Origin: Anaerolineae bacterium
Lineage (GTDB): Bacteria > Chloroflexota > Anaerolineae > Fen-1058
Assembly: GCA_046328575.1 (NCBI GenBank)
Contig: JAXLWI010000003.1
Location: 52 to 64,051, forward strand
Length of the DNA stretch: 64,000 nt
Direction of reading: 5' to 3'
In this document: in pieces, positions 7,995 to 24,743 of the stretch
Numbering within the stretch: position 1 is the first letter of the stretch
Layout: every line of letters begins with the position of its first letter
The notes under the pieces: model-generated
Told to the model about the DNA's origin: nothing
Database searches by the model: none
What the model saw: only the letters and a program-made list of their open reading frames with translations
Position numbers and translations under genes: made by a program

Positions 7995-10900
7995 GTGATG
8001 TTAAACAAATCTAGATCCTCTTCCTCAGAATCACAAGATTTTGCCAATGGCCTCAGTCTGATGAGCCAGATTGGTCAGGCGATTGTTGCCACACTGGAGC
8101 CAGGTAAACTGATTGAGGAAATCTACCATCAGACACACAAAGTCATCCCGGCCAACATCTTTACCCTTTCTCTGTTTACCGATGACCCGAATTGGATAGA
8201 TATGTTTGCGGTGGATAAGGGGCAAGTCGTCCAGGAGCGGCGTCGCATCGGCACCCTCACCCGATGGGTGGTCGAGCAGCGCACGCTGTTTTCTACGCCC
8301 GATGATCAAGTACAACTTCCTCCTGTACCAGTCACACGAATCGAAACCGACACCGTTGAAGAACCGCGTGCCTATATATTGATCCCGATGATCACCCACG
8401 ACAAAGTTGTAGGCGTCATCTCAGTTCAAAGTTATGAGCCGGATGCTTTCAATGACATGCATCTTGCCATGCTATCGGCCATCGCCAGCCACTCGGCGAT
8501 TGTGATTGAGAATAACCGTCTACTGGCCCAAGCGCAACACCGTGCCGCCGAACTGGCCAGTTTGGAACGGATCGGCTACGAACTGGCACGCCTGACGAAC
8601 ATTGAGGATGTGCTGAAGAAGATCATTACTGAGGCCAAAGACCTGCTCACAGCCGATTCCATGTCGATTTTTGCGTATGATGAGCGGCGCGGCAAGTTTC
8701 GCCCCCCGGCTTTTATTCTCAGGCCTGGAGCCGCCGGGCCTGTCGCGCGTGAACGACCACCGCGCGAGATTGGTCTGACCATCAGGGTTGTTCGACTTCA
8801 CTGTGCCATTTTTACCGAAGTCGCGGCGGACGGTCAAGTACTGTTTGCGGAGACCCCGATCGGCCAAAACGTCGAAGTGGCTCAACGGAAGACCTTTGAG
8901 TTTACCGACCAGGACACGCTCGAATTCTTGCAGGCGCAGAATGTGCGCTCATCCATTGGCTTTCCACTTAGCGCGGGTCGGGATATTGTAGGCGTGCTGT
9001 ATATTAACTACCAACGGCCGCATACCTTCGGCCAGGATGAGTTCCAAACCATCGGCCGATTGGCGCAATATGCGGGCACGGCGATCCAACGGGCCAACGT
9101 CTACGGCGAGATCCGAGCGTTGCATCAGGCGGGCCATGCGCTGACCGGGCAAACCGAGATGCGAGCCGTGCTCAACAAACTCGTCGAGTATGGACATGAA
9201 GTGCTGGGGGCCGATCTGATTACGGTCTTTCCCTATCATGCCGGGGCGGACGAGTTTGAACTGCCGCCGGTCGTGTCAGGCGTGGCCCTGAAACCGGACC
9301 AACTTTTGCCGCCGCAAATCAAGTCCGATGATACTGTACGCCGGATCGTAACAGAGAAAAGCGCCCACTTCAGTCGAGACGCGCAGATAGATCCTTTGCT
9401 GGCAGGGTCCGATCCGGCTCTGCGGGAGTCTCGCTTTGTGAGTCGGGAGCAGATTGTCTCGGCGGCGGCGATTCCTTTACGTACCAACGATGATGTCGTA
9501 GGCGCACTGTTTTTCAATTATCGAACCCGGCAACGATTTGGCTCTCATCAGCGGACACTGATCGAAACCTTTGCGGCGTATGCGGCGACGGCCATTCAAC
9601 GGGCTCGATTGCTAGACCGCCGCCTCAAGGAGTTGCGGGCGCTGGCTGAGATTGATGCGGCGATCACATCGGGCAGTCTGCGAGATGTGTTGGACAAAAT
9701 CATTCAGTCAGCGTGTGAGATCGTGGGCGCCAAAGATGGCAATATTCTCTTGTTACATGAAAGTGGAGAGTATCTGTATCTTGCCGCTCGGCAGGGTGAG
9801 GCGTGGCGCAGTGGGGCGCCGGAACGATTTGAAACTGGTACGAGCAGTGTGACTGGCTGGGTTGCCGCGCACAAAAAAACAGCCCGGATTGGCAATGTCC
9901 GTACCGAGGAACCGTGGAAGGACATCTACCTCGAAGTAATCCCTGACATCCAATCGGAATTGAGTGTGCCAATCCTTGATGAGCAGAAGCAGCTGGTTGG
10001 GATCATCTTTTTAGACAGCAAGGCGGCTCACGCTTTTTCGGCCGACGACGAGCGGCTGCTGGAGGCTCTGGCCGGGCAAGCCTATATTGCCATTCGCAAC
10101 CGGCGTCAATTTGAAGCCGAGCAACGCGCACTCCGAGAACTGCACCTGTTGAGAGAGATCGATAACGCCGTCAGTTCGACGCTGAATACCCAAGAAGTCT
10201 TGCAGCTGATTGTGGACAAGATCGATACGTTAATTGATGCCCCGATCTTCGTCGTGATGCTGGCTGATGAACGGCGAGGAGATTTGTATCAAGCCGCCGG
10301 GCGAGGAGTAGTTGCAGATCTCAAGTATCATCGTCAGAAGATAGGTACAGGGATCGTAGGCCAGGTGGCGCTGACCCATCAAAGTGTGCGGATTGGAGAT
10401 GTTAATGCATTAGTAGGAGAGGTGGATTATCTGCAAGTCGTATCAGACACTCGCTCGGAGTTGGCGGTTCCCATCCTGCAAGGTGACCAACTGGTGGGGG
10501 TGCTGAACGTTGAAAGTCCTCAAGTGAACGCGTTCAATGCGGACGATGAGCGACTGTTGAACAGCCTAGCCTCACTGGCAGTCGTCGGGATCCAAAACTC
10601 ACGTCTCTATGAACAGGAGCAGCGTTCCCGAAAGGTGATAGACATCTTGCGCGACGTCGATAAAGCGATCGCTTTCTTGGCTGTTAATCCGCCCGATCAT
10701 CCCGTGCAAAGCCTCGCGGAGGCATTGAGTCCGGTGCTCCAAATTATCCTCAACCGTGGCCTGGAAGCTGTCGGTGCGGTGGTAGGTAGTATCATGTTGT
10801 ATGATGAGGCGACCGATGACTTATATATGGCGGCCGAGCAGGGAGTCTTGTCAGAGTATCGAAACGCGCGACAGAAGATCGGCCAAGAAAAAGGTATCAT

Positions 10901-12887
10901 TGGAAAGGTAGCGTTAGAGAGACAAATATTGCGGATAGATGACGTAACCGCTACACCTTGGAACACCCAGTATCAAGAGTATACGCCCGGAATGCGTTCA
11001 GAATTGGCTGTACCGCTGATGCACCAAAACCGATTAGTGGGTGTCCTCAACGCTGAAAGCCCTCGGATGAGCGCTTTCGGACCTGACGAGGAAAACCTGT
11101 TCGAGACCTTAGCCGGGCAGGCCGTGATCGCATATTTGAATGCGGAAAGATATCAAGCCCTGCAAACGCTCCGAGATATCAATCAATTGCTAGCTTCAGG
11201 CTATGATACCAGTGAAGTGCTGAAGTTGATCTTGGAGTATGCCTGCACCTTCTTCCGGGTCAAGTGGGGAAACCTACGGGTATATGATCCCAGTGGCCGC
11301 CCTACGCGTGACTACGTACTGGTCACGTCAGCCTTGGATCACGCTCCTGACATCCGGGTGATTGATTTACGATTGGCCACTCATGAACGTTGGCTCGATA
11401 GAGGCATCGTGGACTGGGTTGCGCAGCATCGCACGCTGTTTCGCTCTCAGGGTGATGTGCGCAACGATCAACGCTTTTTGAGCTTTCCAGGCCTTGAGAT
11501 TCGTTCGGAGATGACCGCGCCGCTTTCAGTTGGGCCGGATCTAGTGGGCGTGCTGAACCTGGAGAGCGAACGTCCCGGTGCCTTTGATGAAGAGGATGAA
11601 AATCGAATGGGGGACTTCAGCGCGCAGGCCGCGCTGGCCGTGCAGAATGCACGTAACCTGGCCGAGTTGCAAGAGACACAGGAGCGCTTTTCAGCCCTCT
11701 ATGAAGTGGGGAGCGAGATTATCACGGCTCCCTTGAATGAACAGAAGATTCTTGAAATTGCCCTGAATGCCGGGCTAAACCGCACCGGGGTCTTCCACGC
11801 AATTGCCTGGCAACCCGATCGAGACGGCAAACAATTGGAAGCGCGTCTGGTGCTGGGCGAGCAGCAATCCGAGCCGCACGAGCCTATTCCCCGCGATGGC
11901 ACACTTGTTAACAGCGTGGCATGGCAAAAGCGGTCAGAGATCCTGGTCGACGACGTGACAGCGCCACCGGAGGGAGTAAAGCATCGGCCCGGATATACGC
12001 GGACAGGCTCAATGCTGGTTATGCCGATGATGGCAGGCGGCGAGTATTTCGGCAACCTGGACTTTCGGCACAAAGACCCTCACGGATTCAAACAGGAGGA
12101 AATCCGCCTGCTCAATGGCTTGACTGCGCAAGCGGCCAATGCAATACGTCGCATCCGCCATGAAAGAGAACTGGACCAATTCCGACAACGTGAGCACGAA
12201 GCGCGAGCCATGACAGATATTGGTATGGCTGCCGGCGAATTGGGGCACCGGATTGGTAATAAACTTGGCCTATTCAAAACTCATATTGAGGCAATCAAAG
12301 AACAGATTGGCTCGAGTTATCAAGATATCACTCGACGACTGGACTATATGTCAACAAATGTGCAATACTTGCTAACGTTAACCCAACAGTTGAAGCAAGA
12401 ATTGAATGACCGAACGAGTGGAGTTAAGAAGCAGAAAAAGGATTATTCTGCAGCAGTTGTGTTATTTGAAGCATGTAACTCGAAGACTCCGTCGGAATTC
12501 ATTCATGTGCAAATGGACCCTCCAACAGACGACCTTATAGTGAGGGCGGATGATAGCATTTTTGATGCTTTCATTAATATCTACAGTAATGCAATTGAAG
12601 CGCTTGAGTTGCAGGGCGGCACAATCTATATGAGTGCCTGTCAAATTAATGGTTGGATTGAATTCAGGATAGCAGATGATGGCCCGGGCATAGAAGCAGG
12701 AAAACTCGACAAGATCTTTAACTTGTTCTATTCGACCAAGCAAAATAGTCTGGGTTTTGGATTGTTTAGCGCTAAACAACGGGTATTGGCCAACGGTGGA
12801 CAAATCGAAGTACACAGTAAGATTGGAGAAGGGACCACGTTTATAATTCGACTGCCGTCAGCGTTAGCCAAAGAGGTGCGATCATGA
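7995..12887 (+). CDS. Sensor histidine kinase with eight tandem GAF domains and an NtrB-like kinase core (H-box GELGHRIGNKLG, N/G1/G2 boxes NIYSNAIEA/DDGPGI/GFGLF)
   Basis: 1630 aa. Repeated GAF signature (SELAVPIL.GD.LVGVLNVES.....F...DE.LL) about 8 times. C-terminal HATPase_c. Probable start ATG 7998 (GTG 7995 in the ORF track). Stop overlaps the next start (ATGA). Confidence 0.85.
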   Translation: MMLNKSRSSSSESQDFANGLSLMSQIGQAIVATLEPGKLIEEIYHQTHKVIPANIFTLSLFTDDPNWIDMFAVDKGQVVQERRRIGTLTRWVVEQRTLFSTPDDQVQLPPVPVTRIETDTVEEPRAYILIPMITHDKVVGVISVQSYEPDAFNDMHLAMLSAIASHSAIVIENNRLLAQAQHRAAELASLERIGYELARLTNIEDVLKKIITEAKDLLTADSMSIFAYDERRGKFRPPAFILRPGAAGPVARERPPREIGLTIRVVRLHCAIFTEVAADGQVLFAETPIGQNVEVAQRKTFEFTDQDTLEFLQAQNVRSSIGFPLSAGRDIVGVLYINYQRPHTFGQDEFQTIGRLAQYAGTAIQRANVYGEIRALHQAGHALTGQTEMRAVLNKLVEYGHEVLGADLITVFPYHAGADEFELPPVVSGVALKPDQLLPPQIKSDDTVRRIVTEKSAHFSRDAQIDPLLAGSDPALRESRFVSREQIVSAAAIPLRTNDDVVGALFFNYRTRQRFGSHQRTLIETFAAYAATAIQRARLLDRRLKELRALAEIDAAITSGSLRDVLDKIIQSACEIVGAKDGNILLLHESGEYLYLAARQGEAWRSGAPERFETGTSSVTGWVAAHKKTARIGNVRTEEPWKDIYLEVIPDIQSELSVPILDEQKQLVGIIFLDSKAAHAFSADDERLLEALAGQAYIAIRNRRQFEAEQRALRELHLLREIDNAVSSTLNTQEVLQLIVDKIDTLIDAPIFVVMLADERRGDLYQAAGRGVVADLKYHRQKIGTGIVGQVALTHQSVRIGDVNALVGEVDYLQVVSDTRSELAVPILQGDQLVGVLNVESPQVNAFNADDERLLNSLASLAVVGIQNSRLYEQEQRSRKVIDILRDVDKAIAFLAVNPPDHPVQSLAEALSPVLQIILNRGLEAVGAVVGSIMLYDEATDDLYMAAEQGVLSEYRNARQKIGQEKGIIGKVALERQILRIDDVTATPWNTQYQEYTPGMRSELAVPLMHQNRLVGVLNAESPRMSAFGPDEENLFETLAGQAVIAYLNAERYQALQTLRDINQLLASGYDTSEVLKLILEYACTFFRVKWGNLRVYDPSGRPTRDYVLVTSALDHAPDIRVIDLRLATHERWLDRGIVDWVAQHRTLFRSQGDVRNDQRFLSFPGLEIRSEMTAPLSVGPDLVGVLNLESERPGAFDEEDENRMGDFSAQAALAVQNARNLAELQETQERFSALYEVGSEIITAPLNEQKILEIALNAGLNRTGVFHAIAWQPDRDGKQLEARLVLGEQQSEPHEPIPRDGTLVNSVAWQKRSEILVDDVTAPPEGVKHRPGYTRTGSMLVMPMMAGGEYFGNLDFRHKDPHGFKQEEIRLLNGLTAQAANAIRRIRHERELDQFRQREHEARAMTDIGMAAGELGHRIGNKLGLFKTHIEAIKEQIGSSYQDITRRLDYMSTNVQYLLTLTQQLKQELNDRTSGVKKQKKDYSAAVVLFEACNSKTPSEFIHVQMDPPTDDLIVRADDSIFDAFINIYSNAIEALELQGGTIYMSACQINGWIEFRIADDGPGIEAGKLDKIFNLFYSTKQNSLGFGLFSAKQRVLANGGQIEVHSKIGEGTTFIIRLPSALAKEVRS

Positions 12888-13303
12888 GAGTGCTAATAAT
12901 AGACGAAGATCGGTATTGGCGTGAGATGGCCTGGATGTGCCTGCGACAGGTGGGGTACCGTGTAGACGCGGTTGCTGATTCTCTCCGGCTACAACAGTTT
13001 CTCGCAAAGTGTCCGGATATCATCTTATTGGGATTCTCAGTCATTCGGCCACATGACGAAGATCTAGTCGCCTGTGTACGCAGAACCTGCCCTCAGGCCA
13101 TGACGCTGGTGTTCTCGACATCTTGGCCGATTGCCCAGGCAATCGAGAGACGTTTGCTGCGTAGCGGAGTTGTTGATGTAATGGGGCGCTCTAGCTTCGA
13201 CTGTGATCTGGTTAGCCTTGTCGAGAATGAATATGCTAATCAAACTCAAGAGACGGCTTTGCTCTCAATCTATGGGCGATTCCGTCTACAGGGAGCGAAG
13301 TGA
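12884..13303 (+). CDS. Degenerate (pseudo-)receiver domain protein; phospho-acceptor Asp replaced (PDIILLGFSV)
   Basis: 139 aa with CheY-like fold signature (MRVLIIDEDRYW..., LVFSTS) but Gly at the phospho-acceptor Asp position and no conserved Lys. ATG overlaps the kinase stop. Confidence 0.55.
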   Translation: MRVLIIDEDRYWREMAWMCLRQVGYRVDAVADSLRLQQFLAKCPDIILLGFSVIRPHDEDLVACVRRTCPQAMTLVFSTSWPIAQAIERRLLRSGVVDVMGRSSFDCDLVSLVENEYANQTQETALLSIYGRFRLQGAK

Positions 13304-14910
13304 TGGCGGAACGACGAGTATTAATCGTTGACGATGAAATCGAATGGCAGGAAGAACTGCGTCACATTCTTGTCGGAGGGGGCTATCAAGTTGACACGGC
13401 AGGAAGCCTGGAAGTTGCCTTTGCGTATCTCAACAATCGTCTTTATCACCTGGTCATCATTGACATACGACTGGCAGATCGGGATGTAGACAATGTTGAA
13501 GGCATGAGGATCCTTGAAGAATTACATGCACGTTACGATGATACGACGTTGTCGAAAATCATGATTTCTGCCTATGGCACGCGCGAGCAGATGCGAAAGG
13601 CATTTAAGCAGCACAAGGTCGCCGATTTCATTTCTAAACAAGAATTTGACAAATGCGAGTTTCTGACAATCGTTGAAGACACCTTCATTCAAAATGTTAG
13701 AGTGAATCCGAAACTTGACATTGTTTTAGAGGATGGTTTGTCTTTCGAGAATATGATTGTCGGTATCATTTCCCGCGATGGCAAGCGCGTTAAGAGCGCC
13801 GATGCCGATGTGCCGCGGCTTGTCATGGAACTCGAAGATTTGTTTTGCCGTTTGTTTTATGACGATATGCGCATTATCGTACGAAGGGTTACCTTGGGTC
13901 GTGGCAAAGCGGGTGTTGTCAAGGTGGCACCATTCTCGCATGATGGACATGATGAAACTGTGATTGTTAAGTATGGCGATCATGAAGAAATCGCTCGCGA
14001 GTGTCAAAACTATGAGGACTGCGTCAAGGGCAAGATCGGCATGTTATCCACCAATGTCCTCAATTTGAAAAGAACTCCGTTGTTGGGTGGTGTCGTCTAT
14101 TCGCTGATCGGCACACGTGTTGAAGAGATTGTCGACTTTGCCGAGTTTTATCACAAGCACCCGACTGACCGGATCAAGACAGTTCTCGACCACTTGTTTA
14201 AAGAAACATGTGGCAACTGGTATACTGACCGTGGTAAAGTTCAATACTGCCACCTTGACGACATGTATGAAAAGGCTCTTGATTTTCGGCACTCTCAATT
14301 AATAGATGCTCTGGAAGATAACTTTCCGCATTACCTGGATCAAAAAATACTTGCCTTTCGCGATCTTCCCGACGTGCACGTTCCAAATCCGGCCTATGCG
14401 GTCAAAGGATCAGCGTTCTCTCAGTTGACCTTTGCTTGCACGACCCACGGCGATCTCAATGCTAACAATATCCTAATTGATGTCAATGATCACACGTGGC
14501 TGATCGACTTCTATCGCACAGGTGCAAGCCACATCCTGCGGGATTGCATCCAGTTGGAAACAGTCATCAAATTCGTCTTATTGCCGGGGGTCTTGCAATC
14601 AGGCGAGGAACTAACTGCACGCTATCATCTCGAAAGGGCATTGCTGAACATGAATCGTCTTAAAGAGGCCGACACTTTACATTATGAAGCGCCCCACGAA
14701 GAATATGCGAAGGCCTTTGAAGTTTGTCGCCGATTGCGACAGATTGCCCGCGATTTGGTGCATCCCAACGATGACTTTGCCGAGTACGCAATTGGCCTCT
14801 TATACTGTAGCATGAACACACAGCGTTTCTACAAGCTGCCTAAAATTAACCGCTTGCATGCGCTGCTTGCAGCGGGTATGTTGTGCCAGAAATTGGGGAT
14901 CAACGCCTGA
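13300..14910 (+). CDS. Response regulator: canonical receiver domain fused to a protein-kinase-like / aminoglycoside-phosphotransferase-like domain
   Basis: N-terminal receiver (VLIVDDE..., LVIIDIRLAD, IMISAYGT, FISKQ). C-terminal PKL motifs: Gly-rich loop GRGKAGVVKV, VIVKYG Lys, catalytic HGDLNANNILID, DFG-like LIDFYRTG. Confidence 0.6.
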   Translation: MMAERRVLIVDDEIEWQEELRHILVGGGYQVDTAGSLEVAFAYLNNRLYHLVIIDIRLADRDVDNVEGMRILEELHARYDDTTLSKIMISAYGTREQMRKAFKQHKVADFISKQEFDKCEFLTIVEDTFIQNVRVNPKLDIVLEDGLSFENMIVGIISRDGKRVKSADADVPRLVMELEDLFCRLFYDDMRIIVRRVTLGRGKAGVVKVAPFSHDGHDETVIVKYGDHEEIARECQNYEDCVKGKIGMLSTNVLNLKRTPLLGGVVYSLIGTRVEEIVDFAEFYHKHPTDRIKTVLDHLFKETCGNWYTDRGKVQYCHLDDMYEKALDFRHSQLIDALEDNFPHYLDQKILAFRDLPDVHVPNPAYAVKGSAFSQLTFACTTHGDLNANNILIDVNDHTWLIDFYRTGASHILRDCIQLETVIKFVLLPGVLQSGEELTARYHLERALLNMNRLKEADTLHYEAPHEEYAKAFEVCRRLRQIARDLVHPNDDFAEYAIGLLYCSMNTQRFYKLPKINRLHALLAAGMLCQKLGINA

Positions 14911-14921
14911 GAGGATGAACC

Positions 14922-16487
14922 ATGCGGGTTCTCATAGTAGATGACGAGCAAGAATGGCGCGAGAATCTTTGTGACACCGTTCGATTGGCTATTCACCAAA
15001 CCGTCGAGTGTGTGTTAGCCGCCAGTCTTGAAACGGCTCAAGCCGAACTCAAGCAGGCATCATTTGCGCTTATTCTTAGCGACCTTGGTATTCCGTCCCG
15101 TGATGGCATTTCTGACATATCCCCTGAAAACGGCATGTTGCTCTTGCGACTGATTCGAAGCAACGGGCTTAATCAAGGGGCCATTGGTATCGTCGTTACA
15201 TCTCGTGGAACGCCGACTCGCATGCGGGAAGTGCTTCTTAGGCTCAATTTCTCTGATTTCCTAGAAAAAGACAAATTCGATCAAAAAGAAGCTCAGGAAG
15301 TCATTCGCGCGGCACTTTTCACTGGAGCGTATCAACGTGTTGCCGCGTCACAAGCAACCAAATTTGATTTAACATTTGTGTTGACGAATACCCACTGCGT
15401 CTTCGCAGAGTTGTCTGGTCCGGAACGGTTTGGAGATGTAATTCCCGATCAGCCACTGGTCTTTGAGGCGGAGGAATCGATCCGCCGAGCAGACCGTATT
15501 CGCAAGCTCGTCACTGGTGATCTGCGCCGTGAGATGATTGATGAATGGCGGACTGATGCGCGTGAGACTGGAATGGGCCTCTATCGAAGTCTGTTCGGCG
15601 ACTTGTCATTTGGCGGCATTTTGCGGGCTGGCTCCGAAGGCCCGAAACAGTTTCGCGATCTCCGGCTGTGTTTTCGTGGCACACGCCGTTCGTTGGCTGT
15701 GCCCTTTGAACTCCTACATAATAATTCGGAATACCTGGCGTTAAATCATCCCCTTGTCCGCCAGGTCACCTCGGATCACGCGTCGGCTCGCAAGGCTGCC
15801 GCTTTTCGGACTTCACTTCTCAAACTGCACGAGTCGGATAAGACCCTCAACGTACTCCTGCTTGCTTCAAACGGTGGCGATGATCTGGAGGCGGCTGATC
15901 AGGAAGTGACCCAACTTAAGACCCGCATCGATGACCGTTTAGCCGAGACGGGGGTCCGTCGTAATGTATTAGCTATCTCTACGGCTGAGGCGACCTATAC
16001 ACGCGTCGAGTCAGTGCTGCGCGAACGAAAATGGCATGTCATTCACTATGCCGGGCATGGCCGTTGGAATCCGGATCTCCCGGAGGATAGTGCGTTAATC
16101 TTCATGCATAACGACAAGCCACGGTCGATGCCGGCCAGTGTGTTGCATGATCTTCTGAAAGATTCAGAGACTCTGCTGTTCTTCCTAAATGGGTGCTGGG
16201 GTGCGCGCACGGCCGAACATTCAGAGCAAGGCGACTTGTATGGGTTGATGGACAGCCTAGTACAGGCAGGCACGCCCATTGTTTTGGGCCACCGCTGGAG
16301 TGTATCAGACGGCGCCGCCCGTGATTTAGCGTTGACCTTTTACAATGACCTGCTCCAAAATTGGTCGGCTGAGGATGCGCTCCTCTTGGCGCGGAAAGCC
16401 GTCGTGAGCGAGTCCCCATTCCACGGAGACGACCCGGGTTGGGCCTCGCCTATTTTGGTGGTACAGACTGCATACACCCGCTGCTAA
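14922..16487 (+). CDS. Response regulator: receiver domain fused to a CHAT (caspase-like) peptidase domain
   Basis: Receiver motifs (VLIVDDEQEW, LILSDLGIP, VVTSRGT). C-terminal CHAT signature: VIHYAGHGRW (catalytic His) and LLFFLNGCWGART (catalytic Cys). Confidence 0.75.
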   Translation: MRVLIVDDEQEWRENLCDTVRLAIHQTVECVLAASLETAQAELKQASFALILSDLGIPSRDGISDISPENGMLLLRLIRSNGLNQGAIGIVVTSRGTPTRMREVLLRLNFSDFLEKDKFDQKEAQEVIRAALFTGAYQRVAASQATKFDLTFVLTNTHCVFAELSGPERFGDVIPDQPLVFEAEESIRRADRIRKLVTGDLRREMIDEWRTDARETGMGLYRSLFGDLSFGGILRAGSEGPKQFRDLRLCFRGTRRSLAVPFELLHNNSEYLALNHPLVRQVTSDHASARKAAAFRTSLLKLHESDKTLNVLLLASNGGDDLEAADQEVTQLKTRIDDRLAETGVRRNVLAISTAEATYTRVESVLRERKWHVIHYAGHGRWNPDLPEDSALIFMHNDKPRSMPASVLHDLLKDSETLLFFLNGCWGARTAEHSEQGDLYGLMDSLVQAGTPIVLGHRWSVSDGAARDLALTFYNDLLQNWSAEDALLLARKAVVSESPFHGDDPGWASPILVVQTAYTRC

Positions 16488-16513
16488 AGTCAAACCGTAG
16501 TCAGTATTGCCCA

Positions 16514-19500
16514 ATGAAAACTACCTCTATAGCATCTAACTCGAGGGCGCAAGGTCTTGCCGACGGCCTCAGCCTAATGAGCCAGATTGGTCAGGCGATC
16601 GTTGCCACGCTGGAGCCAGGTGAACTCATCGAGGAAATCTACCATCAGACCCACAAGGTCATCCCGGCCAACACCTATACCCTCTCTTTGCTCACCGATG
16701 ACCCAAATTGGATAGACATGTTTGCGGTCGATGAAGGACAAATTGTCCAGGAGCGGCGGCATATCGGCACCCTCACCCGATGGGTGGTCGAGCATCGCAC
16801 ACCGTTTGCTACGCCCGATGATCAAAGGCAACCTCCTCCGGTAGCGGTCACGCGAATCGAGACTGGTGTCGCTGATGAACCGCGGGCCTACATTCTCATC
16901 CCGATGGTTACCCACGATAAAGTCGTCGGCGTCATCTCGGTTCAAAGTTATGAGCCGGATGCTTTCAATGACGTGCATCTTGCCATGCTGTCGGCCATCG
17001 CCAGCCACTCGGCGATTGTGATAGAGAATAACCGTCTGCTGGCGCAGGCCCAGCATCGTGCTGCCGAACTGGCCAGTTTGGAGCGGATCGGCTACGAACT
17101 GGCGCGCCTGACGAACATCGAGGATGTGCTCAAGAAGATCATTACCGAGGCCAAAGACCTGCTCAACGCCGACTCCATGTCGATCTTTGCGTATGATGAG
17201 CGGCGCGGCAAGTTTCGACCCCCGACCTTTCTTCTCAAACCCGGAGCCGTCGGGCCGGTCGCACGTGAACGACCACCGCGCGAGGCTGGTCTGACGATCA
17301 GGATTGTTCGACATCACTGTGCCATTTTTACCGAAGTCAAGGCGGACGGTCAAGTGCAGTTTGCAGAGATCCCGATCGGTCAAAACTTCGAAGTGGCACA
17401 ACGGAAGACCTTTGAGTTTACCGACCAGGACACACTCGAATTCTTGCAGGCGCAGAATGTTCGCTCGTCCATCGGCTTTCCACTCAGCGCGGGTCGGGAT
17501 ATTGTGGGCGTGCTGTACGTCAACTACCAGCAGCCGCATGCCTTTGGCCAGGATGAGTTGCAGACCATTGGTCGATTGGCGCAATATGCGGGCACGGCGA
17601 TCCAACGGGCCAATGTGTATGGTGAGATCCGAGCGCTGCATCAAGCGGGCCACGCGCTGACCGGGCAAACCGAGATGCGGGCCGTGCTCAACAAACTCGT
17701 GGAATATGGGCACGAGGTGCTAGGGGCCGATCTGATTACGGTCTTCCCTTATCATGCCGGGGCGGACGAATTCGAACTGCCGCCGGTCGTGTCGGGCACG
17801 GCTTTGGCCCCCGACAATCTCTTACCGCCACAAATCAGGTCCGATGATACTGTACGCCGGATCGTGACCGAGACAAGCGCCCACTTCAGTCGGGATGCGC
17901 AGACGGATCCTTTGTTGGCAGGGTTCGATCCGGTCTTGCGGCAGTCCCGCTTCGTCACTCGCGAGCAGATTGCATCGGCGGCGGCGATTCCCTTGCGAAC
18001 CAATGGTGATGTCGTCGGCGCTCTGTTCTTCAATTATCGCACCCGGCAACGATTTGGTTCTCATCAGCGTACGCTGATCGAAACCTTTGCGGCGTATGCG
18101 GCGACGGCTATTCAACGGGCCCGATTGCTAGACCGCCGCCTCAAGGAGTTGCGTGCGCTGGCCGAGATTGATGCGGCGATCACATCGGGCAGTCTGCGAG
18201 ATGTGCTGAACAAAATCATTCAGTCAGCGTGTGAGATCGTGGGCGCCAAAGATGGCAACATTCTGTTGTTGCACGAAAGCGGGCAGTATCTGTATCTTGC
18301 TGCCCGTCAAGGTGAGGTGTGGCGCAGTGGCGCGCCGGAACGATTTGAGATTGGTAAGACCGGCGTGCAGGGCTGGGGCGCCGTGCACAAGAAACCAGCC
18401 CGGATTGGCAATGTGCATACCGAGGAACCGTGGAAGAATATTTACCTCGAAGTGATCCCCGGCATCCAATCGGAATTGAGTGTGCCGATCTTGGACGAGG
18501 AGAAGCAACTGGTTGGGATCATCATTTTGGAAAGTAAGGCGGCTCACGCCTTTTCGGCGGACGATGAGCGGTTGCTCGAGGCCTTGGCCGGGCAAGCCTA
18601 TATTGCCATTCGCAACCGGCGTCAATTCGAGGCTGAGCAGCGCGCGCTCCGCGAACTGCATCTGCTGAGAGAGATTGACAGCGCCGTCAGTTCGACACTC
18701 AACCATCAGGCGGTGCTGCAATTTATTGTAGACAAGAGCGATGTTCTGATTGATGCGCCTATCTTCACAGTGATGCTGTATGACGAACGGCGCGGCGATT
18801 TGTATCAAGCAGCGGGACGAGGCATAGTTGCAGATCACAAGTATCATCGTCAGAAGATGGGTACGGGGATCGTAGGGCAAGTGGCGTTGACACGCAGGAG
18901 CGTGCGGGTCGGTGATGTCACTACACTTGCGCAGAATGAAGGCTTTCTACCAGATATGCTCGATACTCGTTCAGAGCTAGCGGTTCCCATCCTGCAAGGT
19001 GACCAATTTGTTGGCGTGCTGAACGTCGAAAGCCCTGAAGTTGACGCGTTCAATGCGGACGATGAACGACTGTTGAAAAGTCTGGGATCGCTGGTCGCTG
19101 TCGCGATCCAAAACAGCCGCCTCTATGAACAGGAACAGCGCGCCCGCCAGGTGATTGATATCTTGCGCGAAGTCGACCAGGCGATTGCCTTCTTAGCAGT
19201 GACTCAACCGGAGAACCTGGCAGACGAATTGAGCCCCATACTGCAAATCCTCCTCAATCGTGGCTTGGATGCGGTGCACGCGCCGGCTGGCAATATTATG
19301 CTGTATGATGATGCCACCGATGATTTATACATGGCGGTCGAGCGTGGTGTGCTGCCCGAACACCGCACCGCCCGCCAGAAGATCGGCGAGGGCGTCGTGG
19401 GCCGCGTCGCAATTGATAAACGAACGTTGCGTATAGATGATGTGAATGTGCCGCCGTGGGATACAGTCTATCAAGGCTACATCTCCGACGTTCGATCTGA

Positions 19501-21430
19501 ACTCGCCGTGCCACTGGTATACAAAGACCGCCTGGTCGGCGTCCTCAACGCCGAAAGCCCACTGGTAAGCGCGTTCGGACCTGAAGATGAGGACCTCTTC
19601 GAAGCCCTGGCCGGGCAAGCCGTGATTGCCTATTTGAACGCCGAACGGTATCAGGCCTTGCAAACCCTTCGCGAAGTCAACCAATTGTTGGCCTCAGGCC
19701 ATGACTCCAACGACGTGCTGAAGTTGATCCTTATCTATACCTGTACCAACTTCCGAGTGGAGTGGGGGAACTTGCGGCTATTTGACCATACAGGACAGCC
19801 GATCCTCGATTACGTCCTGGTTACCTCGGCGCTGGGCATTGACCCGGAAGTACGGGTGATTGAAATTCGACGCGCAACTCATGAAAAATGGCTAGAGAAG
19901 GGCATCGTCAGCTGGGTCGCACAACAACGTGAACTGTTCCGCTCGCAGGGCAATGTGCAGGCAGATCCGCGCTTTCAGAGCTATCCTGGCCTCGAGATTC
20001 GTTCGGAAATGGCTGCGCCGCTGTTGGTTGGCTCAGATCTAGTTGGCGTGTTGAACCTGGAAAGCCAACGTCTAAATGCATTTGATGCAAACGATGAAGA
20101 CCGCATGCGCGACTTCAGTGCGCAGGCCGCACTGGCCGTGCAGAATGCGCGTAATTTGGCCGAGTTGCAAGAGAGCGAGGGGCGCTTTTCAGCCCTCTAT
20201 GAAGTAGGGAGTGAGATTATCACGGCTCCTTTGGATGAACTCAAGATCCTTGAGATTGTTCTGAGTGCCGGACTGAACCGCACGGGGGGCTTCCACGCAA
20301 TTGCCTGGCAACCCGATCGAGAGGGCAAACAATTGGAGGCGCGTCTGGTGCGGGGCGAGCAGCAAGCCGAGCCGCATGAGCCTATTGCACGCGACAGCAC
20401 ACTCGTTAACAGCGTGGCATGGCAAAAGCGGTCAGCGATCCTGGTCGACGATGTGACCGTGCCACCGGAAGGGACAAAGCATCGGCCTGGACATACGCGG
20501 ACCGGCTCAATGCTGGTGGTGCCGATGATGGCAGGGGAAGAGTATTTCGGTAACCTGGATTTTCGGCACAAAGACCCGCACGGATTCAAACAGGAAGAGA
20601 TTCGATTACTCAATGGCTTGGCCGCGCAGGCCGCCAATTCGATACGCCGTATCCGCCGTGAGAATGAGTTGAAGTCAATCTTACAGAAACAGTTTAACGA
20701 ATTACAAGATGCTTATGATGAATTAAGGATCGCTGACCGGCAAAAGTTGGAGTTTCTCGCGATTGCCTCTCACGAGCTGCGCAAACCATTAACTCCACTT
20801 CGTGTTGTCTTAGAACGGGCCGTTTTGGGTGAATACTCGCCATTAGAATTGCTGGATAAAATGCGGCTCGCCCTTGATCGTACCCAGCATCTAACAGGTA
20901 TCGTCGATCAACTTCTGAATATCGCTAGGATTGAAGCTGGCAAGATTAAGCCTGAGTTTGGAACTCATAGTGTAGTTGACTTGATAAAAAGATCGTTAAC
21001 AAGTATTCAGCATGTTGCCGAGAATAAAGGCATTCAGCTAATATCTGAATTGCCAACCGAATCGATCACCGCCGAAATCGATCAAGGTAAAATTAGCCAA
21101 GTGCTTGATAACCTCCTAGACAATGCTCTCAAACATACCGAGGCAGGCGGTTGTATTACAGTTTCATGTATTCACCTCAAGCCTGAAGACGACGTCATCC
21201 TCTGCGTCCGTGACACTGGAGAAGGAATACCAGAGAAGGAATACAAGCGAATCTTTGACTGGTTTTATCAGGTCGATCCTTCCCTGACGCGCTCCATTGA
21301 AGGTTTGGGCGTTGGGTTGTATGTCGCTAAAAAGTATATCGATATGCATGGCGGTCAGATCACGGTGAAAAGCGAGGTCGGCAAAGGCAGCACCTTCACT
21401 GTCTTGTTGCCGGCACGTCAGAAGGCATAA
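16514..21430 (+). CDS. Sensor histidine kinase, paralog of 7995-12887 with eight GAF domains but a classical HisKA (LEFLAIASHELRKPLTPL) + HATPase_c core
   Basis: Residues ~1-1340 are ~85-90% identical to the first kinase, then diverge into a PhoR/EnvZ-type core. Start set at ATG 16514 (MKTTSIAS...) by alignment with the paralog; the ORF-track start at 16439 overlaps the previous gene. Confidence 0.85.
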   Translation: MKTTSIASNSRAQGLADGLSLMSQIGQAIVATLEPGELIEEIYHQTHKVIPANTYTLSLLTDDPNWIDMFAVDEGQIVQERRHIGTLTRWVVEHRTPFATPDDQRQPPPVAVTRIETGVADEPRAYILIPMVTHDKVVGVISVQSYEPDAFNDVHLAMLSAIASHSAIVIENNRLLAQAQHRAAELASLERIGYELARLTNIEDVLKKIITEAKDLLNADSMSIFAYDERRGKFRPPTFLLKPGAVGPVARERPPREAGLTIRIVRHHCAIFTEVKADGQVQFAEIPIGQNFEVAQRKTFEFTDQDTLEFLQAQNVRSSIGFPLSAGRDIVGVLYVNYQQPHAFGQDELQTIGRLAQYAGTAIQRANVYGEIRALHQAGHALTGQTEMRAVLNKLVEYGHEVLGADLITVFPYHAGADEFELPPVVSGTALAPDNLLPPQIRSDDTVRRIVTETSAHFSRDAQTDPLLAGFDPVLRQSRFVTREQIASAAAIPLRTNGDVVGALFFNYRTRQRFGSHQRTLIETFAAYAATAIQRARLLDRRLKELRALAEIDAAITSGSLRDVLNKIIQSACEIVGAKDGNILLLHESGQYLYLAARQGEVWRSGAPERFEIGKTGVQGWGAVHKKPARIGNVHTEEPWKNIYLEVIPGIQSELSVPILDEEKQLVGIIILESKAAHAFSADDERLLEALAGQAYIAIRNRRQFEAEQRALRELHLLREIDSAVSSTLNHQAVLQFIVDKSDVLIDAPIFTVMLYDERRGDLYQAAGRGIVADHKYHRQKMGTGIVGQVALTRRSVRVGDVTTLAQNEGFLPDMLDTRSELAVPILQGDQFVGVLNVESPEVDAFNADDERLLKSLGSLVAVAIQNSRLYEQEQRARQVIDILREVDQAIAFLAVTQPENLADELSPILQILLNRGLDAVHAPAGNIMLYDDATDDLYMAVERGVLPEHRTARQKIGEGVVGRVAIDKRTLRIDDVNVPPWDTVYQGYISDVRSELAVPLVYKDRLVGVLNAESPLVSAFGPEDEDLFEALAGQAVIAYLNAERYQALQTLREVNQLLASGHDSNDVLKLILIYTCTNFRVEWGNLRLFDHTGQPILDYVLVTSALGIDPEVRVIEIRRATHEKWLEKGIVSWVAQQRELFRSQGNVQADPRFQSYPGLEIRSEMAAPLLVGSDLVGVLNLESQRLNAFDANDEDRMRDFSAQAALAVQNARNLAELQESEGRFSALYEVGSEIITAPLDELKILEIVLSAGLNRTGGFHAIAWQPDREGKQLEARLVRGEQQAEPHEPIARDSTLVNSVAWQKRSAILVDDVTVPPEGTKHRPGHTRTGSMLVVPMMAGEEYFGNLDFRHKDPHGFKQEEIRLLNGLAAQAANSIRRIRRENELKSILQKQFNELQDAYDELRIADRQKLEFLAIASHELRKPLTPLRVVLERAVLGEYSPLELLDKMRLALDRTQHLTGIVDQLLNIARIEAGKIKPEFGTHSVVDLIKRSLTSIQHVAENKGIQLISELPTESITAEIDQGKISQVLDNLLDNALKHTEAGGCITVSCIHLKPEDDVILCVRDTGEGIPEKEYKRIFDWFYQVDPSLTRSIEGLGVGLYVAKKYIDMHGGQITVKSEVGKGSTFTVLLPARQKA

Positions 21431-21448: not shown

Positions 21449-22963
21449 TTGTCGCAAAATCTCCGGATCCTCATCATCGATGATGATCTCATTGCAACTC
21501 AAGAACTCAAAGAAGCCCTTGAATATGAAGGGTATTCAGTCAGCATAGCATCCGGTGGAGTGGATGGTGTGCGCCTTGCAGAAGAGCTGCTTCCGAGCCT
21601 CATCATCTTGGATGTGATGATGCCGGGAATGGACGGCTTTGAAGTCTGCCGCCTGCTTCAAGCAGGGGCTGAAACGGCGAAAATTCCGATTCTCATGTTG
21701 ACCGCTCGCACTGAAGTACAGGACAGGATCAGCGGGCGCGACCGGGGTGCAATCGTTTATATGACCAAGCCGTACTCGATAAGCGAGCTGCGCGCTCAGG
21801 TCAGGGTTCTGCTCCATCGTTTCCCTAACCCACACCGCTCAGAGTTATCGATCACATACAATAGTCAGCAGGTATTCTCCTTCCAGCTACTGGGTGTTAC
21901 AACGTATGCCAGTGACGGGCGGCATATTCCCCTCGCTCTGGTGGATCTCAATCAAGAACTCGTAGACGTGGGAGATCGAATCAGTGCCTTCCAGAAACTC
22001 CTGGCAGATGCTCCTTCTGACGAACAAAGTGCGCAGTACCATGAAAAACGTGATGTCTGGCGACGGCAAGTTAAGAAGCGCGGCAAAGAACTCCACGATC
22101 AATTCGTCGCCGCCAACTCGGATCTGGTCGAGCAGTTTGGCTTGGCGAAACAAGTATTACGATCAGATGACTTACTTGTCCGCTTTATTGGGCCGCGAGC
22201 GCATCTTGGCCTGCCGTGGGAGCTGCTCCATGACGGCGAGCACGTGCCGTTGGTAATCATGCATCCATCCTGTCGGACAGTAACAAGTATTCATTCTCGT
22301 CACAAGCACGATTCATGGAGTGCCTTCCTCGACAGACTAGATTCCGAGCCGCTGCGTGTTCTGTTGCTTGCTTCGAGTTCAGGCACACCGCTTGAAGAAA
22401 TTCAATATTTAGGTCAATGGTTTAAGCAAGCATTTCGAGATAGGGTAGTTGTCGAACCTGATCCGCCGATAGTTTTGTCCCGACAACAGGCTGAAATCTT
22501 GCTGCGCAAAAAGTCGTTCCACCTCATTCACTACGCCGGTCATAGCAGCTTTGACGGGGTGCGCCCAGATCAAAGCGGGTTACGATTTGGCTCAAAGAGG
22601 GACGATCTGATCACGGCTGGGTGTCTATATGATCTGCTGCTTGATTCGCCGGCCCGGTTGGTTTTCTTGAATTCGTGCGCAGGCGCGCAAGTTGGTGATC
22701 TTGAACGACTCAAAGACAATGATTTTCTGGGCCTAATTGATGTAGCGGTCGTGGCCGGCGTGCCCGCTGTCTTGGGTTTTCGCTGGAATGTGACGAATGC
22801 CGCATCGTTCGAGTTCGCCAAACAGTTCTATGGTCACCTGCTTGAAACTCGGTCTTTGGAGCAAGCGACCTGGCTGACTCGCAAGAGCATCTATCGTGCT
22901 AACGGATGGGACGAAACCTGGCTCTCTCCTATCTTGGTCGTCCAAAATCCTCAATCCTTCTAA
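21449..22963 (+). CDS. Response regulator: receiver domain fused to a CHAT (caspase-like) peptidase domain (second copy)
   Basis: TTG start with SD GCTGGAGG. Canonical receiver (ILIIDDD, LIILDVMMPGMDG, LMLTART, YMTKPY). CHAT motifs HLIHYAGHSSF (His) and LVFLNSCAGAQ (Cys). Confidence 0.75.
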   Translation: MSQNLRILIIDDDLIATQELKEALEYEGYSVSIASGGVDGVRLAEELLPSLIILDVMMPGMDGFEVCRLLQAGAETAKIPILMLTARTEVQDRISGRDRGAIVYMTKPYSISELRAQVRVLLHRFPNPHRSELSITYNSQQVFSFQLLGVTTYASDGRHIPLALVDLNQELVDVGDRISAFQKLLADAPSDEQSAQYHEKRDVWRRQVKKRGKELHDQFVAANSDLVEQFGLAKQVLRSDDLLVRFIGPRAHLGLPWELLHDGEHVPLVIMHPSCRTVTSIHSRHKHDSWSAFLDRLDSEPLRVLLLASSSGTPLEEIQYLGQWFKQAFRDRVVVEPDPPIVLSRQQAEILLRKKSFHLIHYAGHSSFDGVRPDQSGLRFGSKRDDLITAGCLYDLLLDSPARLVFLNSCAGAQVGDLERLKDNDFLGLIDVAVVAGVPAVLGFRWNVTNAASFEFAKQFYGHLLETRSLEQATWLTRKSIYRANGWDETWLSPILVVQNPQSF

Positions 22964-22974
22964 GGAGAACTAAC

Positions 22975-23331
22975 ATGTCTGACCAGCAACCTTCCGATAG
23001 TATCATCGTTTACACCATGCCAGACGTAAGCGAAAAGACCAATGATTATGATCAGATGCGCGGTGATTATGATCAAGAGAGAAAGTGGTTTGGTTCTCCA
23101 AAGCCAACTACAGTCTCATCCGTGAAACTTCAACAGCAGATCAATGTCTTTCTAGTCCAAATGGGCGAAGCGTTGAAAGAAACACCGGCTGAAGTAGGCG
23201 GATTCAAATTAAATGAAATCGAAATCTCGGCCGGAATCACGGCCGGCTTGGAGATTGCGCTGATTGGGTTGGGCAGCGCCAAAGGTGAACTCACGGGGGG
23301 ATTACGCTTTACGTTTAAGCGTTCAGAATGA
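22975..23331 (+). CDS. Small (118 aa) protein resembling the Trypco2 / CU044_2847-type domain that co-occurs with trypsin/CHAT peptidases in conflict systems
   Basis: Strong SD AAGGAGA 6 nt before ATG 22975. C-terminal half (FKLNEIEISAGITAGLEIALIGLGSAKGELTGGLRFTFKR) matches the alternating beta-strand pattern I recall for Trypco2; from memory, not a search. Stop overlaps the next start (ATGA). Confidence 0.4.
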   Translation: MSDQQPSDSIIVYTMPDVSEKTNDYDQMRGDYDQERKWFGSPKPTTVSSVKLQQQINVFLVQMGEALKETPAEVGGFKLNEIEISAGITAGLEIALIGLGSAKGELTGGLRFTFKRSE

Positions 23332-24743
23332 AGTCTGAAGTCCCACTCACCGCCTCGTATCGATACGCCGAGGTAACCCAAATCTTTCGCCGGGTGAAAG
23401 CCGGCGATTCATGCATGGTCGTCGGCGTGAGCGGCATGGCCAAATCGAATCTGTTTCGACATATCGCTAGACCTGAGATAAGAGAAATATTCTTGGGCTT
23501 GACCTGGCAAAACTACGGGTTTGCGTCGACGGATGTGCATGCCCTCGCGAATCCCAATGAGGCGGGATTATATGAATCTATCTTGCGTAATCTGATACGA
23601 GACACCAAGGAATTAGGCCTAGCAGGCAACGACCTACTCACTTCTGTACAGACTCAGTTTGTGCAACTAGAACGCTTGACGACTGACCGTGAGTTGCCTC
23701 AAGCGCAACGCGCTTTTTTGACGGCGATGGATCTATTCGCGACTAACAGGCAACTACATTTCGTCATACTGCTTGATCAATTCGATGAGATTTTTCCACA
23801 TTTGTCCGCCCGCTGCTTTACCACCTTACGGCATTTGCGAGATCAGCTAAAGTATCGGCTGTCATATATAGTCTTTACACGTGAAGATCTGTCTCGCCGA
23901 GGTCACAATGCAGGAGTTGAAGAATTCACTGAACTACTCACGCCCGCAGTCCTCTGGCTAGGGACCTACTCGCGAGAAGACGCCCAAACTGAAATACGGC
24001 GTGTAGCGGCACGATATGGGATCAAGCCCGATTTTCGCGTAAGTGATCGCTTGATCGATCTCACAGATGGTCATTCCGGGTTGCTGAAGGCAGCTTATCA
24101 GGCTGTAATCGATGGGCGTGCAAACATAGAACTGAATGACAGCGCCATCAGTCTACTAAAGGATTCCAATGTTCAGACGGAATGCATGAAACTCTGGAGT
24201 AGCCTCACCTCAAAAGAGCAGACAACGTTAGTCAGAGCTGCGCTCGGGGGTGAGGTCGGTTCTCCAGTTAACGATACTATCGAGTATCTTGAGCGCAAGT
24301 CTCTACTAACAAAATCCGGTGGTCACTATAAGATTTTCTGCTCATTGTTCGCTGACTTTCTCGTTCAGCAAGCCAGTGGTTCATTTCAAAATCTCACTCC
24401 AGCAGCGGTAAAAACTCACCAAGGTACGCCCAGGAATTTGAAACTCCGTATTGAGACTGAAACGCGGACCGCCTGGCTTGGCTATCAGGAACTCAAGCTA
24501 ACTCCCAATGAGTACAAACTGCTGGACTTGTTGTATCACCGCCGAGGAGCCGTTTGTAGTCGAGACGAGATCGTCCGGCAGGTTTACTCTGTTCGAGTGG
24601 TCGATCCTGCTACGGGTATTGACGATAGTCGTGTCGATACGTTGGTAAGCCGGCTACGAGGAAAGATAAAGGGCGCGGGAGGCGATCCGCACATTGTTAC
24701 GACAGTGTGGGGACAAGGCTTCAAATTAGAAAACGACGAGTAA
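23328..24743 (+). CDS. P-loop NTPase (AAA/STAND-like) fused to a C-terminal OmpR/PhoB-type winged-helix DNA-binding domain
   Basis: Walker A-like VVGVSGMAKSN, Walker B HFVILLDQFDE. C-terminal ~100 aa with trans_reg_C pattern (LTPNEYKLLDLL...VDTLVSRLRGKI...IVTTVWGQGFKL). Confidence 0.65.
   Translation: MKSEVPLTASYRYAEVTQIFRRVKAGDSCMVVGVSGMAKSNLFRHIARPEIREIFLGLTWQNYGFASTDVHALANPNEAGLYESILRNLIRDTKELGLAGNDLLTSVQTQFVQLERLTTDRELPQAQRAFLTAMDLFATNRQLHFVILLDQFDEIFPHLSARCFTTLRHLRDQLKYRLSYIVFTREDLSRRGHNAGVEEFTELLTPAVLWLGTYSREDAQTEIRRVAARYGIKPDFRVSDRLIDLTDGHSGLLKAAYQAVIDGRANIELNDSAISLLKDSNVQTECMKLWSSLTSKEQTTLVRAALGGEVGSPVNDTIEYLERKSLLTKSGGHYKIFCSLFADFLVQQASGSFQNLTPAAVKTHQGTPRNLKLRIETETRTAWLGYQELKLTPNEYKLLDLLYHRRGAVCSRDEIVRQVYSVRVVDPATGIDDSRVDTLVSRLRGKIKGAGGDPHIVTTVWGQGFKLENDE

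Follow-up and report, generated by a model that had tools for sequence, protein, structure and literature searches.

The gene at positions 13300..14910 (+ strand) of a 64,000-nucleotide stretch of DNA from an Anaerolineae bacterium of the Chloroflexota (contig JAXLWI010000003.1, positions 52 to 64,051), hereafter the window, encodes a response regulator, REC-TCAD9, in which an N-terminal receiver (REC) is joined to a TCAD9 domain. Structure prediction shows that this output domain falls in the structural class of the aminoglycoside phosphotransferases (APH), choline kinases and methylthioribose (MTR) kinases. We think it probable that REC-TCAD9 is a genuine response regulator with an APH-class kinase output that is predicted to be catalytically competent, and that it is the dedicated and constant partner of a cytoplasmic multi-GAF histidine kinase in a branched relay. 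Response regulators with enzymatic outputs include the CheB methylesterase, the PleD and WspR diguanylate cyclases, the HD-GYP protein RpfG and the PorX phosphodiesterase, but to our knowledge no enzymatic response regulator with an APH-type kinase output has been characterised. The TCAD9 domain is already catalogued in Pfam, and enzymatic response regulators are known as a kind; what appears to be new is the receiver-fused APH-type kinase and the cassette of GAF kinase and REC-TCAD9, neither of which we found described in the searchable literature.

Receiver and kinase domains of REC-TCAD9

The REC-TCAD9 gene begins with GTG and encodes 536 amino acids. An alternative ATG at 13303, one codon on, gives the 535-residue NCBI model (P0001), which is 100% identical and carries the title 'MAG: response regulator [Anaerolineae bacterium]' (MAG, metagenome-assembled genome). 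The gene on the + strand is strongly conserved, and all of the minus-strand open reading frames (ORFs) nested within it are 93 residues or shorter. Its G+C content is 0.469, compared with 0.53-0.55 for the flanking kinase genes and 0.55-0.60 for the wider window.

A preliminary description of this DNA, made from the sequence alone, had claimed a canonical receiver, and every residue of the phosphorylation chemistry was indeed found. The receiver occupies residues 6-133 (13315..13698, +) and contains D11 and D12 (in VDDE), the acceptor D55 (in IIDIRL; nucleotides 13462-13464), S90, the switch residue F110 and K113 (in FISKQ), which align to CheY D12, D13, D57, T87, Y106 and K109, respectively. 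The domain has the (beta-alpha)5 fold, and Pfam Response_reg (PF00072) matches residues 7-115 with 51.7 bits against a cutoff of 30.2 (E 1.2e-13).

The remainder of the protein, residues 136-536 (13705..14907, +), matches Pfam TCAD9 (PF19974) with 136.9 bits against a cutoff of 40 (E 1.4e-39). The four kinase-like motifs of the preliminary description, GRGKAG, VIVKYG (containing K224), HGDLNANNIL (residues 383-392) and IDFY (residues 402-405), are all present. The Gly-rich nucleotide loop GRGKAG (residues 200-205; 13897..13914, +) is followed by the invariant beta-3 lysine K224 (13969-13971) and helix-C glutamate E234 (13999-14001), which together span 13969..14001 (+). The invariant catalytic loop HGDLNANN (residues 383-390; 14446..14469, +) contains the predicted base D385 as well as N390, and the metal-binding IDF with D403 begins an APH-type segment, IDFxxTGxxHILRD (14503..14544, +), identified by motif search and alignments, that ends in the invariant D415. 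No activation loop is present in this short segment. A single occurrence of the pattern HGDxxxxN...D[FLWY] was found across the six frames of the window, and the set of motifs and profile matches in REC-TCAD9 is far beyond chance.

The claim that the output domain is protein-kinase-like or APH-like was supported by the Pfam TCAD9 match, by confident structural models and by the structures that those models resemble. A non-kinase fold was looked for by structure prediction, and a bilobal kinase fold was obtained instead. The AlphaFold2 model of the full-length protein has a predicted local distance difference test score (pLDDT) of 91.3 and a predicted template modelling score (pTM) of 0.88, and that of the output domain alone has a pLDDT of 94.8 and a pTM of 0.92. 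In a Foldseek search of the PDB, the top matches other than receivers were APH(3')-Ia/IIa/IIIa and APH(2'') (E about 1e-6), and fold searches also matched choline kinases, corramycin, amicoumacin and hygromycin kinases, maltokinase and FN3K. In the model the Gly-rich loop bridges strands 191-196 and 205-213, K224 lies in the beta strand 221-227 that follows, the helix bearing E234 (228-242) comes directly after, and HGD, N390 and D403 are placed after strand 374-382, so that the modelled order of elements is that of a canonical kinase. The profile of the TCAD9 family (HGDLNxxNiL...wlIDF) aligns to the catalytic and metal loops of Rio2 (HGDLSQYNVL...IWIIDF) with an E value of 4.6e-5, and this alignment agrees with the order of strands and helices in the model in placing the motif residues at the ATP site.

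REC-TCAD9 resembles the known APH, choline and MTR (MtnK) kinases of the PF01636 clan (3csv, 2pyw, 2olc, 4ej7, 8agy) in its bilobal fold with a helical insert between hinge and catalytic loop, in its HGDxxxxN loop and IDF...D metal and structural motifs, and in its lack of an activation loop. It differs from them in its receiver, in an additional N-terminal stretch of approximately 55 residues, in a long bundle of helices at the C-terminus, and in sequence, the identity being only 9-17%. Pfam matches to Kdo, APH, EcKL and RIO1, all sub-threshold, coincide with the catalytic loop. The APH family itself (PF01636) scores 18.7 bits against a cutoff of 23.2, which places REC-TCAD9 in the APH fold class and not in that Pfam family; most REC-TCAD9 homologs do carry a precomputed PF01636 match. 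None of the marks of Hanks-type Ser/Thr kinases that were looked for in REC-TCAD9 (a Pkinase match, HRDxKxxN, an activation segment ending in APE) was found.

The residues on which catalysis would depend have been retained by the homologs. Across 46 homologs with 35-69% identity the invariant residues are D55, K113, K224, E234, H383-G384-D385, N387, N390, I402-D403-F404 and R414-D415. In an alignment of 33 TCAD9 domains, which takes in receiver-less relatives at 21-24% identity, they are G200, K224, E234, HGD, N387, N390, I402-D403, T407, D415 and R480. To the extent that alignments can show it, the active site is thus intact and under purifying selection in the TCAD9 family. W307, Y308, K471 and Y496, which lie outside the ATP site, are also invariant or nearly so in the 33-domain alignment, and together with R480 they persist through the REC-, GAF- and STAS-fused forms, suggesting that these forms act on one common substrate.

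The GAF kinase, the pseudo-receiver and the TCAD9 family

Upstream of REC-TCAD9 lies the gene for HK1 (7995..12887, +), a cytoplasmic sensor histidine kinase in which Pfam recognizes eight GAF domains and HATPase_c, and which has a non-canonical His box, ELGHRIGNKLGL. There is no Pfam HisKA match in the HK1 transmitter, but 26 orthologous kinases share with it an invariant His in the box ELxHRxxNxLGL, along with the N, G1, F and G2 boxes. A multi-GAF kinase of this type has its C-terminus within 550 nucleotides 5' of REC-TCAD9 in 33 of 34 loci, and the loci come from the Anaerolineae, Chloroflexia, Ktedonobacteria, Caldilineae, Blastocatellia and Thermoanaerobaculia. The pairing of REC-TCAD9 with a GAF kinase is therefore obligatory, and HK1 is its predicted cognate kinase.

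The preliminary description placed REC-TCAD9 between a histidine kinase and a caspase-like protease. A protease gene does follow, after an 11-nucleotide gap containing GAGGA, but the kinase gene does not directly abut, as a 139-residue receiver-like protein is encoded between them (12884..13303, +). This protein has a receiver-like fold with only weak Pfam and NCBIfam receiver matches, and its acceptor Asp is replaced by Gly (LLGFS). A gene for a protein of approximately 140 residues separates the kinase from REC-TCAD9 in 16 loci; its products align to receivers, and the position of CheY D57 is G, S, N or W in these proteins and never D, which identifies the product as a pseudo-receiver; the conserved Ser/Thr is kept and mostly also the Lys. 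The HK1 and pseudo-receiver genes overlap by four nucleotides (ATGA), and the stop of the pseudo-receiver gene overlaps the start of REC-TCAD9 in GTGATG. Judging from these junctions, HK1, the pseudo-receiver and REC-TCAD9 are translationally coupled in the window.

The protease, REC-CHAT1 (14922..16487, +), consists of a receiver and a caspase-like CHAT domain (Pfam CHAT, E 5.7e-29) with an intact His/Cys dyad, HYAGHG and LNGCWG, that is conserved in 11 orthologs. A REC-CHAT gene lies directly 3' of REC-TCAD9 in approximately 11 of 37 loci. Among paralogs, the receivers of REC-CHAT1 and REC-TCAD9 are most similar to each other (30% identity, E 1e-14); we predict from this sequence relationship that REC-CHAT1 is the second branch of the HK1 pathway.

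The receiver-TCAD9 architecture is, as far as homology searches reach, a conserved family and not a one-off fusion. A word-indexed search with REC-TCAD9 returned 199 clusters at E <=1e-5. The matches listed (120 of the 199) carry PF19974, nearly all of them are approximately 530-545 residues long, nearly all also have PF00072, and the taxa include Anaerolineae, Chloroflexota, Caldilineaceae, Ktedonobacteraceae, Blastocatellia and Pyrinomonadaceae. An exhaustive phmmer search of 1.84 billion representatives with the TCAD9 part found 1963 proteins at E <=1e-3, 911 at <=1e-10 and 207 at <=1e-30, and in most of the close matches TCAD9 begins at about residue 135-180, indicating that these are receiver-fused. 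The species-representative genomes contain 36 full-length REC-TCAD9 loci, including those of the cultured Ktedonobacter racemifer DSM 44963, K. robiniae and Ktedonospora formicarum.

Other members of the family attach TCAD9 to different partners. A multi-GAF array is joined straight to TCAD9, with no intervening kinase or receiver, in P0193, P0199, P0204 and P0215, and there are fusions of the types HATPase_c-REC-TCAD9 (P0171), REC-TCAD9-HisKA-HATPase_c (P0121 and locus L002) and TCAD9-AAA_22 (P0180). The receiver-less relatives are STAS-X-TCAD9 proteins of approximately 780 residues in Verrucomicrobiota, Cloacimonadota, Desulfobacterota and Armatimonadota (loci L040-L051; e.g. L042 6750-9146). 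Such varied fusions suggest that TCAD9 is a reusable output module that serves behind several signalling inputs. The connection from GAF to TCAD9, predicted to run through His-Asp transfer in the window, is elsewhere a covalent fusion.

In six loci of Ktedonobacteria and Chloroflexia a second REC-TCAD9 stands in tandem with the first, in place of REC-CHAT. These tandem copies are catalytically intact except for L015b (D385N; L015 10037-11239) and L029a (D385M/D403H; L029 5711-6790), whose substitutions make them possible pseudokinase partners. In L016 and L017 a short ORF with receiver similarity lies 3' of REC-TCAD9, and the one in L017 (136 residues) is recognized as Pfam Response_reg. Several loci of long-read MAGs (L030 8388-9599, L033 8406-9607, L036 8391-9580 and L027 10033-11159) have a TCAD9 or CHAT gene in which the tblastn match is split, and in L030 there is an in-frame stop. 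These split or stop-bearing genes are either pseudogenes or assembly frameshifts.

A second module and other genes of the window

The window contains two such modules arranged head to tail, HK1/pseudo-receiver/REC-TCAD9/REC-CHAT1 and then HK2/REC-CHAT2. HK2 (16439..21430, +; true start probably 3' of 16439) is a paralogous 8-GAF kinase with, according to Pfam, canonical HisKA and HATPase_c, and REC-CHAT2 (21449..22963, +) is a second receiver-CHAT protease (Pfam receiver E 7.9e-24, CHAT E 6.4e-23). Over 4.1 kb the sensors of the two kinases, HK1 and HK2, are 82.6% identical in nucleotides, with 64-95% amino acid identity per 100-residue block, whereas the transmitters share only about 20-25% amino acid identity. 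This pattern of identity indicates a recently duplicated 8-GAF sensor that is wired to two separate phosphotransfer channels. The REC-CHAT2 receiver is unlike the receivers of the first module, and REC-CHAT2 is likely, on this comparison, to be the partner of HK2. The paralogy of the receivers thus fits an arrangement in which HK1 feeds REC-TCAD9 and REC-CHAT1, HK2 feeds REC-CHAT2, and both kinases receive similar input.

Downstream of the second module, Pfam identifies an nSTAND1 ATPase with an OmpR-type winged helix (Trans_reg_C; 23328..24743, +) and a paralogous STAND-like ATPase (nSTAND1/AAA_16) with Trans_reg_C (25683-27053, -), along with a Band_7 gene. Homologs of these ATPase-winged helix (STAND-wHTH) genes lie directly 3' of the most divergent REC-TCAD9 genes (L037-39), and in L001, L010 and L034 they are no more than 8 kb from REC-TCAD9. 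It is possible that the nSTAND1-Trans_reg_C protein is an associated component or a target of the cassette.

Elsewhere in the window a 443-residue protein (268-1599, -) has a Pfam match to FAIM1 (Fas apoptotic inhibitory molecule; E 9e-10). Rfam and tRNA scans of 7-25 kb found nothing. A terminator scan found 11 sites where 17.9 are expected by chance; promoter-like sites numbered 23 against 13.2 expected and are scattered within genes, and the ends of the operon are not definable from them.

Proposed mechanism, competing explanations and biological role

In the mechanism that we propose, the 8-GAF array of HK1 would sense an intracellular ligand or state, and HK1 would autophosphorylate on the invariant His of its ELxHRxxNxLGL box. 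REC-TCAD9 would then receive the phosphoryl group from HK1 on D55, and the receiver of REC-CHAT1 would be phosphorylated by HK1 in parallel. Phosphorylation of the REC-TCAD9 receiver would alter its interface with the kinase domain and thereby switch the ATP-dependent phosphotransferase, in which K224 and E234 would bind ATP, D385 would act as the base and N390 and D403 would bind Mg, and the CHAT protease would be switched simultaneously. The Asp-less pseudo-receiver would be unable to take phosphate and is probably an adaptor of HK1 or a brake on it. The predicted control of a C-terminal enzyme by an N-terminal receiver, through a phosphorylation-dependent change of their interface, resembles that of CheB, PleD, WspR, RpfG and PorX; PorX and GGDEF regulators were among the matches in the searches made. 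The phosphotransfer, its specificity, the sign of the regulation and the substrate of REC-TCAD9 are what we infer in this scheme.

Our best guess for the substrate is the hydroxyl of a small molecule or short peptide that is common to the TCAD9 family, rather than a protein substrate of the Hanks type, because most of the structural neighbours act on small molecules, an activation segment is absent, and residues outside the ATP site are conserved across phyla. Judged by its gene context, the most likely role of the cassette in filamentous Chloroflexota is to control a regulated response of the stress, cell-fate or conflict kind.

Several points weigh against parts of this interpretation. That phosphorylation of the receiver activates the kinase rather than inhibiting it is assumed. 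No conserved metabolic neighbour in the REC-TCAD9 loci points to a substrate, and the APH-fold matches include kinases of proteins or peptides (LxmK, TvaE, YihE, YtaA), so the fold alone cannot decide the class of substrate. Unlike REC-TCAD9, YihE/SrkA, the spore-coat kinases YtaA/CotI, LxmK and TvaE have no receiver fusion and are found in lanthipeptide-cluster or spore-coat neighbourhoods; no precursor-peptide or lyase genes were found among the Pfam-scanned proteins of the window. REC-CHAT is present in only about one third of the loci, indicating that the kinase does not need the protease. PADLOC recognized no known defence system among the module proteins and gave only weak matches at the level of receivers and ATPases, the presence of Dtc models in that release being unconfirmed. 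Finally, the locus is syntenic with that of a 56%-identical relative, with Indigoidine_A and Band_7 neighbours in both, and so looks vertically inherited and not like a mobile defence island.

A possible alternative, which we hold to be unlikely but not far-fetched, is that of protein-kinase cross-talk, in which TCAD9 phosphorylated at D55 of its receiver would phosphorylate a Ser, Thr or Tyr of another protein of the module and so gate a second output. Candidate targets would be the CHAT protease, the pseudo-receiver, HK1 or, by analogy with AfsK/AfsR, the neighbouring STAND-wHTH regulator. The conserved neighbours of REC-TCAD9 are all signalling proteins and none is metabolic, the REC-TCAD9-HisKA-HATPase fusions (L002, P0121) place TCAD9 inside a relay, STAND-wHTH genes recur beside REC-TCAD9 and are directly 3' of it in L037-39, and the P0180 protein fuses TCAD9 to AAA_22. 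However, no target is common to all loci: about 11 of 37 have CHAT, 16 of 34 have the pseudo-receiver and about 7 have STAND-wHTH. TCAD9 also has neither an activation loop nor an APE-type segment for substrate docking, and its residues outside the ATP site are kept family-wide, even in the STAS- and GAF-fused forms of other phyla.

A more specific role for the cassette, which we consider doubtful, is that of a Detocs-like two-component system for conflict or programmed cell death in multicellular Chloroflexota and Acidobacteriota. In such a system of GAF kinase, pseudo-receiver, REC-TCAD9 and REC-effector, REC-TCAD9 would be the signal-processing step and not the terminal effector, gating interchangeable CHAT, PNP or STAND modules; it may make a phosphorylated small-molecule messenger or license an effector by phosphorylation. 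Among the effectors of conflict systems of the vWA-MoxR-VMAP, iSTAND2 and TERNS3 types, TCAD9 has been listed as an active 'aminoglycoside-like small-molecule kinase' (Kaur, Burroughs, Iyer, Aravind 2020/2021; PMC7159879, PMC8195603); where the papers on these systems speak of receivers, it is only of receivers that occur independently of a histidine kinase (PMC8195603). The loci described here share with those systems the same domain with its predicted active APH-like kinase, and related loci have the neighbours typical of vWA-MoxR and iSTAND-type systems (TIR-iSTAND, STAND-WD40, PNP). In L002 (15521-19184) the REC-TCAD9-HisKA-HATPase fusion is followed by a REC-PNP_UDP_1 gene, with a TIR-iSTAND gene nearby, and in L083 (8001-12916) a TCAD9-AAA_22 protein is followed by a 773-residue PNP_UDP_1 protein, with an NB-ARC-WD40 gene nearby. 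There are also several TCAD9 loci per genome. Together with the CHAT proteases and the STAND-wHTH neighbours, these features are hints of a role in conflict or cell fate. In contrast to vWA-MoxR-VMAP systems, TCAD9 is here tied to a receiver and a multi-GAF histidine kinase and forms a constant core rather than a variable effector. No vWA, MoxR or VMAP gene was found within 13 kb on either side in the window, nor in L001-L003, and among these same four loci a TIR-iSTAND gene lies near REC-TCAD9 only in L002.

Detocs itself consists of the histidine kinase DtcA with a TPR sensor, the buffer receiver DtcB, whose acceptor Asp is essential, and the receiver-PNP effector DtcC (bioRxiv 10.1101/2023.01.24.525353). 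The cassette is similar in that a single operon combines a cytoplasmic sensor kinase with a small stand-alone receiver-like protein and with receivers fused to effectors, and in the REC-PNP_UDP_1 protein of the related locus L002. It differs in having a GAF array instead of TPR, a small protein without the acceptor Asp, and two different enzymatic response regulators. We rate a role in defence or cell death no higher because the analogy to Detocs is incomplete in its small receiver and its sensor, and because of the absence of a PADLOC match and the synteny noted above.

It is improbable that REC-TCAD9 is a metabolic or resistance enzyme under two-component control, such as an MTR or 5-deoxyribose kinase or a phosphotransferase for aminoglycosides or peptide antibiotics. 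The closest solved structures are indeed MTR kinases, antibiotic kinases (corramycin, amicoumacin, hygromycin, APH) and choline kinases, and the Joint Genome Institute (JGI) label of one homolog is 'thiamine kinase-like enzyme'. The STAS-X-TCAD9 genes of L040-43 come after MtnA-like (IF-2B) and class II aldolase genes, which we considered as a clue to an MTR or 5-deoxyribose kinase. These four loci are mutually 85-90% identical, and the other STAS-TCAD9 loci (L044-51) do not have the MtnA and aldolase genes, so the association belongs to a single lineage, and we demoted it to the present weak alternative. No REC-TCAD9 locus has conserved salvage, biosynthetic or resistance neighbours, the Pfam APH score lies below its cutoff, and an 8-GAF kinase, a pseudo-receiver, CHAT or PNP effectors and tandem paralogs are atypical of a housekeeping or resistance kinase.

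Very improbable is a non-catalytic role, with TCAD9 as a pseudokinase-like scaffold that binds ATP or a ligand, or with the protein mainly as a competing sink for phosphate that would determine how much flows from HK1 to REC-CHAT, in the manner of the buffer role proposed for DtcB. In its favour, catalytic residues are missing from some second copies of tandem pairs (L015b, L029a), many kinase domains of conflict systems are inactive (Kaur et al., PMC7159879) and TCAD9 lies between receiver and histidine-kinase transmitter in fusions, as a sensor or linker might. Against it, the base, the two Mg ligands, the lysine of beta-3 and the glutamate of helix C do not vary in 46/46 homologs and 33/33 domains (to 21% identity) and are kept in 11 of 13 tandem or fused copies, which is hard to explain without selection for catalysis, and the absence of REC-CHAT from two thirds of the loci means that REC-TCAD9 is not merely a sink for that branch.

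The catalogued enzymatic outputs of response regulators are methylesterases, cyclic-di-GMP enzymes and phosphatases, and an APH-type kinase is not among them. In the relay that we favour, with REC-TCAD9 as a phosphorylation-controlled kinase beside HK1, a His-Asp relay appears to control both a caspase-like protease and a further phosphorylation that is chemically distinct from the first. The cassette is conserved across two phyla and is present in culturable Ktedonobacter species, and with the direct GAF-TCAD9 fusions and the window's paired kinases with duplicated sensors the system is amenable to experiment. Should the kinase prove active, identification of its substrate would establish a new class of signalling output and would provide a first function for TCAD9, a domain found in approximately 900 clusters (E <=1e-10). 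The cassette could also reveal the way in which proteolytic decisions on cell fate are linked to a cytoplasmic multi-GAF sensor in filamentous bacteria.

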